From: Escherichia coli
GTDB taxonomy: Bacteria; Pseudomonadota; Gammaproteobacteria; Enterobacterales; Enterobacteriaceae
NCBI RefSeq assembly: GCF_003790525.1
Contig: NZ_CP033635.1
DNA: 64,000 nucleotides
Reading direction: 5' to 3' (one strand)
Both the position numbers and the translations under genes were made by a program. The first letter of the stretch is position 1. The number at the start of each line of letters is the position of its first letter. The notes under the pieces were generated by a model. That model made no database searches, was not told the DNA's origin, and saw nothing but the letters and a program-made list of their open reading frames with translations. Below, piece after piece: positions 22,470-24,985 of the stretch.

Positions 22470-23945
22470 TTAACCTGCAACAGCAATACGTTTCATATCC
22501 GTCATATAGCCGCGCAGTTTCTTACCTACCTGCTCAATCGCATGGCTGCGAATCGCTTCGTTCACATCACGCAACTGCGCGTTATCTACCGCACCTTCCG
22601 GAATAGCTTTACCCAAGTCGCCCGGTTGCAGCTCTGCCATAAACGGTTTCAGCAGCGGCACACAAGCGTAAGAGAACAGATAGTTACCGTACTCGGCGGT
22701 ATCAGAGATAACCACGTTCATTTCGTACAGACGCTTACGAGCGATAGTGTTGGCAATCAGCGGCAGTTCGTGCAGTGATTCATAGTAAGCAGACTCTTCG
22801 ATGATGCCGGAATCAACCATGGTTTCAAACGCCAACTCAACGCCTGCTTTTACCATCGCGATCATCAGTACGCCTTTATCGAAGTACTCCTGCTCGCCGA
22901 TTTTGCCTTCATACTGCGGCGCGGTTTCGAACGCGGTTTTGCCGGTCTCTTCACGCCAGGTCAGCAGTTTCTTATCGTCGTTGGCCCAGTCTGCCATCAT
23001 GCCGGAAGAGAATTCGCCGGAGATGATGTCATCCATGTGTTTCTGGAACAGCGGCGCCATGATCTCTTTCAGCTGTTCAGACAGCGCGTAAGCACGCAGT
23101 TTCGCCGGGTTAGAGAGACGGTCCATCATCAGCGTGATGCCGCCCTGTTTCAGCGCTTCGGTGATGGTTTCCCAGCCGAACTGAATCAGTTTTTCTGCGT
23201 ATGCCGGATCGGTGCCTTCTTCCACCAGTTTGTCGAAGCACAGCAGAGAGCCAGCCTGCAACATACCGCACAGGATGGTTTGCTCGCCCATCAGGTCAGA
23301 TTTCACTTCCGCAACGAAAGAGGATTCCAGCACGCCCGCACGATGACCACCGGTTGCCGCCGCCCACGCTTTAGCGATCGCCATGCCTTCGCCTTTCGGA
23401 TCGTTTTCCGGGTGAACGGCAATCAGCGTCGGTACGCCGAATCCACGTTTGTACTCTTCACGCACTTCGGTGCCAGGGCATTTCGGCGCAACCATTACTA
23501 CGGTGATGTCTTTACGGATCTGCTCGCCTACTTCCACGATGTTGAAACCATGCGAGTAACCCAGCGCCGCGCCGTCCTTCATCAGTGGCTGTACGGTGCG
23601 CACTACATCAGAGTGCTGCTTGTCCGGCGTCAGGTTAACCACCAGATCCGCCTGTGGGATCAGTTCTTCGTAAGTACCCACTTTAAAACCATTTTCGGTT
23701 GCTTTACGCCAGGATGCGCGCTTTTCGGCAATCGCTTCTTTACGCAGAGCGTAGGAGATATCGAGACCAGAATCACGCATGTTCAGGCCCTGGTTCAGAC
23801 CCTGTGCGCCACAGCCGACGATGACTACTTTTTTACCCTGAAGGTAGCTCGCGCCATCGGCGAATTCATCGCGCCCCATAAAGCGACATTTGCCCAGCTG
23901 TGCCAGCTGCTGGCGCAGATTCAGTGTATTGAAGTAGTTAGCCAT
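22470..23945 (-). CDS. ilvC: Ketol-acid reductoisomerase
   Basis: Track ORF (565 aa) trimmed to [19 protein letters not shown] (491 aa). Confidence 0.96.
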
Positions 23946-24094
23946 GGTGATTCCTCGTGATGTTGTGCTTCTTATTGTTCGGTTCGCGTTTGCGAGATTG
24001 AATTCACTATATGACAGGAAATTTATTGCGGAAATTGATATATTCACAACGTCACATTGCAATTTTTGCAACGTCAACATTGAGGGCTGCGCCA
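23946..24094. promoter_or_regulatory. ilvY-ilvC divergent promoter/operator region
   Basis: Intergenic position between divergently transcribed LysR regulator and its target; established for this locus; individual operator sites not resolved. Confidence 0.6.
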
Positions 24095-24985
24095 TTGGAT
24101 TTACGCGATCTGAAAACCTTCCTGCATCTGGCGGAAAGCCGCCATTTTGGGCGCAGCGCGCGGGCAATGCACGTTAGCCCGTCTACGCTTTCGCGACAAA
24201 TACAGCGCCTGGAAGAAGATCTCGGTCAGCCGCTGTTTGTGCGTGATAACCGCACGGTAACGCTGACGGAAGCGGGCGAAGAACTGCGCGTTTTCGCCCA
24301 GCAAACGCTGTTGCAATATCAGCAATTGCGCCACACCATCGACCAGCAAGGGCCGTCGCTCTCTGGTGAATTACATATCTTCTGCTCGGTGACCGCTGCC
24401 TACAGCCATCTTCCACCGATTCTCGACCGCTTCCGCGCGGAACATCCGTCAGTGGAGATCAAACTCACTACCGGTGATGCAGCCGATGCGATGGAAAAGG
24501 TGGTCACTGGCGAAGCGGATCTGGCGATTGCCGGGAAACCGGAAACCTTGCCGGGCGCAGTGGCGTTTTCGATGCTGGAGAATCTGGCGGTGGTGCTGAT
24601 TGCTCCCGCGCTGCCCTGCCCGGTGCGTAATCAGGTCTCTGTCGAAAAGCCCGACTGGTCTACAGTGCCGTTTATCATGGCCGATCAGGGACCGGTACGC
24701 CGCCGCATTGAACTGTGGTTTCGGCGTAACAAAATCAGCAACCCAATGATTTACGCCACGGTTGGCGGGCATGAAGCGATGGTATCGATGGTGGCGCTCG
24801 GCTGTGGCGTGGCGCTGTTGCCGGAAGTGGTGCTGGATAACAGCCCGGAACCGGTGCGTAACCGCGTGATGATTTTAGAGCGCAGTGATGAAAAAACGCC
24901 GTTTGAGCTGGGCGTGTGCGTACAAAAAAAGCGGCTTCATGAGCCGCTGATTGAGGCGTTCTGGAAGATTTTGCCGAACCACTAA
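24095..24985 (+). CDS. ilvY: LysR-type transcriptional activator of ilvC
   Basis: Conserved N-terminus (M)[21 protein letters not shown] begins at a TTG codon; an in-frame ATG lies 28 codons upstream (24011) inside the promoter region, so start assignment is uncertain. Confidence 0.88.

Follow-up and report, generated by a model that had tools for sequence, protein, structure and literature searches.

The question raised by this locus is where translation of ilvY begins. The window (the whole stretch of DNA analysed, 64,000 nucleotides) carries the ilvC-ilvY-ilvA region of Escherichia coli, as judged from positions 23700 to 24400 and the open reading frames listed there; ilvY is encoded by the plus strand and ilvA, which ends at 24982, by the minus strand. 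The gene ilvC, 149 nt from ilvY, is read in the opposite direction and has its ATG start codon at 23943-23945 (minus strand, first base 23945) according to direct reading, the open reading frame list and the RefSeq ilvC coding sequence of a strain identical over 351 bp. Direct reading places a TTG at 24095-24097 on the plus strand within GCCATTGGAT, followed by GAT TTA CGC GAT CTG (DLRDL), so that the residues after it read DLRDLKTF. The same frame opens after a TGA at 23999-24001, and the first ATG in it, at 24011-24013, precedes the TTG by 28 codons. A sequence-only reading of this DNA had called the start ambiguous, the regulator being either TTG-initiated or extended by 28 N-terminal residues. 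Its coordinates were exact, both for the TTG at about 24095 preceding the LysR N-terminus (as confirmed by the sequence and the open reading frame list) and for the ATG at 24011, which lies 28 codons before the TTG and at a distance of 66 nt from where ilvC begins (23945); the ambiguity itself resolves to TTG 24095. The identity of the codon, the conservation pattern around it, the Shine-Dalgarno sequence and the upstream stops in orthologues are direct observations, from which we infer actual initiation at this codon. We thus consider it highly probable that ilvY is translated from TTG 24095 to give the standard 296-residue LysR-type IlvY, with a DNA-binding domain that starts at residue 3.

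The coding sequence of 296 codons at 24095-24985 (plus strand) is supported by the open reading frame list, RefSeq, and matches to family models. A 351-bp stretch around the ilvY start is 100% identical to that of E. coli 2016C-3878, and the same region was found in 5,425 of 5,426 complete E. coli genomes. In a strain with no difference from the window across the 351 bp compared, the RefSeq ilvY coding sequence starts at the equivalent of 24095 (WP_000365784.1, 296 aa); the homologous position is the RefSeq start in 12 other E. coli genomes sampled (MC4100, MG1655 and ten more), where the codon is either TTG or GTG. The NCBIfam equivalog model for IlvY, NF008722, is matched at 511.4 bits (cutoff 246), and positions 1-292 of its 293 match residues 29-323 of the long form that would begin at the upstream ATG, which puts model position 1 at TTG 24095. 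The LysR-type helix-turn-helix domain occupies residues 3-62 of the 296-residue form (24101-24280, plus strand) and covers all of Pfam PF00126 (HTH_1, positions 1-60 of 60), while the LysR substrate-binding domain (PF03466, LysR_substrate) matches residues 89-293; the 28 extra residues of the long form have no match to the NCBIfam and Pfam family models. The gene is identified as ilvY by the equivalog match above cutoff, the presence of both the helix-turn-helix and the substrate-binding domain, and the divergent ilvC with the operators O1 and O2 between the two genes. In K-12, IlvY is responsible for inducer-dependent activation of ilvC and for autorepression (PMC5002191, PMC6483228). We did not find ilvY in the supplements of TRAINSPOTTER (PMC13245402) or INRI-seq (PMC9825163), which cover N-terminomics and in vitro initiation profiling, and a full-text literature search combining ilvY with GTG, TTG or translation initiation found no paper on the ilvY start codon.

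Orthologues were compared by scanning one genome per species, which yielded 80 Enterobacteriaceae loci with 91-99% protein identity; two E. coli loci bring the set to 82. Among the 80 species, the codon homologous to 24095 is GTG in 65, ATG in 14 (a group including Kosakonia, Phytobacter and Pluralibacter) and TTG in one, E. albertii; over all 82 loci the numbers are 66, 14 and 2, the TTG cases being window-type E. coli and E. albertii. No codon besides these three occurs at the position, synonymous Val and Leu codons included, and the third base is invariant across the 82 loci; this is the behavior of an initiation codon, unlike that of an ordinary Val or Leu sense codon. Across the family, the ilvY start is weak and non-ATG, with GTG predominating, TTG probably prevailing within E. 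coli, and ATG limited to a minority of the genera. An in-frame stop is present within 10 codons upstream of the start in 54 of the 82 loci, and in 47 of those 54 the stop is TAA, at codon -7 and just past operator O1.

The sequence-only reading had suggested an orthologue alignment as a check on the extension. We aligned 81 sequences from -150 to +120 around the ilvY start and scored column conservation by codon position. From 24098 onward, conservation at the three codon positions is 0.99/0.99/0.80, a clear coding periodicity, and coding conservation therefore begins at TTG 24095, contrary to what the extension would require. Over 24011-24094 the values are 0.88/0.84/0.84, with no periodicity. 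Within this upstream part, 24014-24074 is almost invariant at all three codon positions, which is expected of protein-binding DNA and matches the O1 and O2 operators; 24075-24094 is poorly conserved (0.56-0.67), and its sole conserved part is a GGAG-like core.

The arrangement of promoters and operators can be placed on the window from published K-12 work. The footprinting data of Wek & Hatfield (1988), as summarised in PMC5002191, place the centre of O1 (ACgTTGCAAaaaTTGCAAtGT) at +17 relative to the start of ilvY transcription; O2 (aTATatCaatttccGcaATAa) overlaps the -10 and -35 boxes of ilvY as well as the -35 box of ilvC, and the centres of three inverted repeats of 15 bp lie at -65 (IR1), -43 and -34 relative to the ilvC start (PMC5002191). 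In the window, O1 is found at 24054-24074 (ACATTGCAATTTTTGCAACGT); it matches the published sequence, is highly conserved, and constitutes the autorepression site in the ilvY leader. O2 is found at 24023-24043 (TTATTGCGGAAATTGATATAT) as the reverse complement of the published sequence, and is nearly invariant in the 80 species. The inverted-repeat centres fall at 24064, 24042 and 24033, with IR1 at 24057-24071, and this mapping of operators and repeats is internally consistent. With the O1 centre (24064) at +17, the ilvY transcription start would be at approximately 24048 on the plus strand, within a few nt; with the IR1 centre, also 24064, at -65, transcription of ilvC would start near 23999, giving a 5' untranslated leader at 23946-23999 on the minus strand. 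We infer both starts from a secondary account of experiments on K-12, the sequence of which is identical here. A predicted ilvC -10 hexamer, TATAGT, can be read at 24006-24011 on the minus strand, 7 nt upstream of this start, its first base (24011) being the A of the upstream ATG. The ilvY promoter (24036-24051) has an extended -10-like sequence, TGaTATATT, at 24036-24044 on the plus strand, which is likely the ilvY extended -10 element judging from the sequence and from the reported O2 overlap (PMC5002191).

A consensus promoter and terminator scan of 23850-24200 flagged no sigma-70 promoter and no terminator. This result is uninformative rather than contrary since the promoters here are non-consensus, that of ilvC being activator-dependent and that of ilvY reportedly sigma-S-preferring; the promoter positions thus rest on the literature and on reading of the sequence. 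In vitro, the ilvY promoter is reported to be preferentially transcribed by sigma-S holoenzyme, and to be rpoS-dependent in stationary phase in one medium (PMC3141248). The part of the Kim 2012 transcription-start tables that was searched contains no ilvY entry.

If ilvY mRNA begins near 24048, then the ATG at 24011, some 37 nt farther upstream and touching the predicted ilvC -10 hexamer, is promoter DNA and would be missing from the ilvY message. The sequence-only reading had located this ATG inside the shared operator region; it does belong to the shared promoter region, but it lies just outside the O2 repeat.

For ribosome binding, we calculated anti-Shine-Dalgarno duplex energies over the 22 nt before each in-frame candidate. 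TTG 24095 reaches -6.1 kcal/mol with an 8-nt spacer, by virtue of the Shine-Dalgarno sequence GAGGG at 24082-24086 (plus strand), and the K-12 GTG allele reaches -6.4 kcal/mol. The values for the other candidates are -3.0 kcal/mol for ATG 24011, -4.3 kcal/mol for both TTG 24026 and TTG 24035, +0.6 kcal/mol for ATT 24056, and +1.2 kcal/mol for both ATT 24062 and TTG 24080, against a background with a mean of -2.5 and a 5th percentile of -6.4 kcal/mol. TTG 24095 alone has a usable Shine-Dalgarno sequence. The ilvY leader RNA folds no better than shuffled sequences in the three alleles compared (z = +0.7 to +1.8), and the initiation region should therefore be accessible. The same z-scores led us to reject the idea that the five substitutions separating the window from K-12 in this region (described below) are compensatory changes in a hairpin that hides the Shine-Dalgarno sequence. 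We suggest a leader of ~47 nt in which O1 would come first, then GAGGG 8 nt before the TTG, then the near-cognate start, which would be read by initiator tRNA.

The alternative of a start at ATG 24011 (24011-24013, plus strand), which would yield a 324-residue IlvY with a 28-residue N-terminal extension, must be weighed against this evidence. It has the strongest start codon on its side and a frame that is open from 24002; K-12 and every other E. coli allele examined save that of SCPM-O-B-8794 likewise have both this ATG and the open frame, and a rare transcript initiating farther upstream could in principle be translated from there. Yet the codon lies upstream of the mapped ilvY transcription start and beside the predicted ilvC -10, and its duplex energy leaves it without a usable Shine-Dalgarno sequence. 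The extension is also poorly retained, as the stops in 54 of 82 loci interrupt it and the ATG is missing in 67 of 82 (kept in 15); codon periodicity is absent upstream of TTG 24095, and the family models all leave the extension outside. An in-frame ATG upstream of ilvY is, moreover, no commoner than chance expects: when the 149-nt intergenic region was shuffled 5000 times with dinucleotides preserved, 35% of the shuffles had an ATG upstream in frame before any stop, and in 20% the frame was open for at least 31 codons. We thus regard the 28-residue extension as effectively refuted, with next to no likelihood left to it, and suggest that the frame from 24011 to the TTG is open by chance, as a side effect of the conservation of promoter and operator DNA.

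Two other candidates lie closer to the annotated start. Translation partly or wholly from the in-frame TTG at 24080-24082 (plus strand), five codons upstream, would add MRAAP before LDLRDL; this codon is start-capable, lies within the ilvY leader, and is shared by the window allele with some other E. coli alleles. Against its use, it shows no anti-Shine-Dalgarno pairing and overlaps the GAGGG that serves 24095, other alleles have TCG in its place (K-12, O157:H7, O111:H8) or TTA (ST131, Nissle), a stop occurs at codon -7 or nearer in many genera, and it was never the choice of RefSeq in the genomes sampled; we find it very unlikely that it is used. A true start farther downstream, for instance at the internal ATG of codon 24 (Met24), would leave DLRDLKTF untranslated. 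The periodicity is, however, already at 0.99/0.99/0.80 from 24098, the IlvY equivalog model begins at TTG 24095, and Pfam HTH_1 needs residues 3-62, so that a protein starting at Met24 would lack the first helix of the DNA-binding domain; periodicity and domain completeness together refute this candidate, to which we assign almost no probability. Initiation at TTG 24095 is supported by the annotation, the orthologue codons and upstream stops, the periodicity, the model boundaries, the Shine-Dalgarno sequence and the published transcription start.

SCPM-O-B-8794, the GTDB E. coli representative, has no ATG at codon -28, and its ilvC -10 region differs from that of the window (GAATGTCACCACATTACAAC at locus positions 1102-1125 vs GATTGAATTCACTATATGAC at window 23996-24018). 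A stop at codon -54 and an ATG at codon -51, both present in this strain, occur also in Pseudocitrobacter faecalis and Citrobacter sp. MGH106.

The start codon is itself polymorphic within E. coli. A 36-nt probe centred on this codon (24077-24112) was run against complete E. coli genomes. Exact matches, which carry TTG by identity to the probe, were found in 1,656 records; one mismatch was found in 1,835 records, with TTG in 7 of 7 sampled; two to three mismatches in 149 records, with GTG in 2 of 2 sampled; and four to seven mismatches in 1,774 records, which represent the haplotype of K-12, BLR(DE3) and O157:H7, with GTG sequenced in K-12 and O157:H7. In the one-mismatch genomes sampled, the differing base falls within the Shine-Dalgarno sequence or next to it, which results in GAGAG, AAGGG or a C at 24081; TTG genomes of this class include ST131, Nissle 1917, O111:H8 and O157:H16. 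The two representatives with two to three mismatches, 21F61 and KKo009, carry GTG on a window-type background. By sampling within these mismatch classes, we estimate that TTG is present in ~64% and GTG in ~36% of complete E. coli genomes, so that TTG is probably the majority allele and the GTG of K-12 the minority one. The Shine-Dalgarno sequence of ilvY is likewise polymorphic in the species, with GAGGG, GAGAG (O157:H16 Santai) and AAGGG (ST131, Nissle) all observed.

Records at least 99% identical to the window over 23900-24250 number 166 of 5,431. Seven matches to this ilvY region are on records typed as plasmids (~58 kb), e.g. NZ_CP081708.1 and NZ_CP081793.1, one of them only 85% identical; they may be mis-assigned contigs or copies from another genus.

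E. albertii NBRC 107761 carries the exact TTG haplotype of the window, AACGTCAACATTGAGGGCTGCGCCA-TTG (25 nt and the codon, at 1176-1203 of its locus), while E. whittamii and Escherichia sp. MOD1-EC7003 have GTG at the ilvY start. The presence of the TTG haplotype in both species could reflect a shared ancestral polymorphism or interspecies recombination, the latter being considered because the haplotype is shared with E. albertii base for base. We rejected the notion that the ilvY region of the window is E. albertii DNA, as sliding identity is overall no closer to E. albertii than to K-12. One may speculate that the TTG/GTG difference, the linked substitutions and the GAGGG/GAGAG/AAGGG variants set lineage-specific levels of IlvY and were selected or recombined, beyond neutral drift; we consider this doubtful.

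As to the consequences of a TTG start, reporter assays found GUG and UUG to initiate at 10-100% of AUG (bioRxiv 10.1101/063800). It is plausible that the TTG lowers IlvY expression; however, the common alternative allele is GTG and not ATG, and any TTG-specific effect would thus be relative to another weak codon. The combination of a weak start and autorepression is consistent with a regulator of low abundance. That K-12 probably carries the minority GTG allele is relevant for the engineering of circuits based on IlvY and PilvC, and for comparisons of IlvY expression across strains. Our analysis confirms the existing annotation of ilvY, on which a gene caller that prefers the longest ATG-initiated open reading frame would err, and the gene illustrates neatly how promoter and operator DNA, when conserved, can mimic an N-terminal extension.

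The closest known system is ilvY of K-12 itself (b3773, NP_418221.1), the prototypic LysR-type activator of ilvC with divergent overlapping promoters and tandem O1/O2 operators; the window has the same gene at the same position. Both have a divergent ilvC, a convergent ilvA, the same annotated start position and a non-ATG start. The sequence-only reading had also called for a comparison with K-12 at the start codon, which turns out to be GTG there and TTG in the window (CCCTGTGGAT vs GCCATTGGAT), with four more substitutions in the preceding 14 nt. The two sequences are the same at every base from 23930 to 24080, both operators included, and then differ five times in 15 nt, at 24081, 24090, 24091, 24094 and 24095 (K-12 ATCGAGGGCTGTCCCTGTG vs window ATTGAGGGCTGCGCCATTG); all differences within 23930-24130 fall in 24081-24095, from the Shine-Dalgarno sequence to the start codon. 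In the ilvY coding region (24093-24981), the window differs from K-12 by ~5-9% per 150-nt window, which is high for a within-species comparison, while the adjacent 5' part of ilvC differs less, by 0.7-5%.

The proteins also differ slightly in length, 296 aa in the window vs 297 aa in K-12, where a 58-bp REP-like insertion between ilvY and ilvA alters the last codons. The window lacks this segment at 24981-24985 (~2584-2641 of the K-12 locus), which holds a REP-like palindrome, GCCTGATAAGCGAAGCGCTATCAGGC, and SCPM-O-B-8794 lacks it as well; without it, the ilvY and ilvA coding sequences share 4 nt (24982-24985), and their stop codons interlock.

In a wider context, AUG, GUG and UUG serve as start codons in 83, 14 and 3% of E. 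coli genes (bioRxiv 10.1101/063800), and the TTG of ilvY, a non-ATG start that the annotation already has, is nothing out of the ordinary: features of this kind are known, and the gene is well studied. It resembles the other UUG-initiated genes of E. coli (~3%) in its near-cognate codon, its use of initiator tRNA and its normally spaced Shine-Dalgarno sequence; nothing sets it apart from them, the one point of note being that the codon is polymorphic between TTG and GTG within the species, and is ATG in some related genera.
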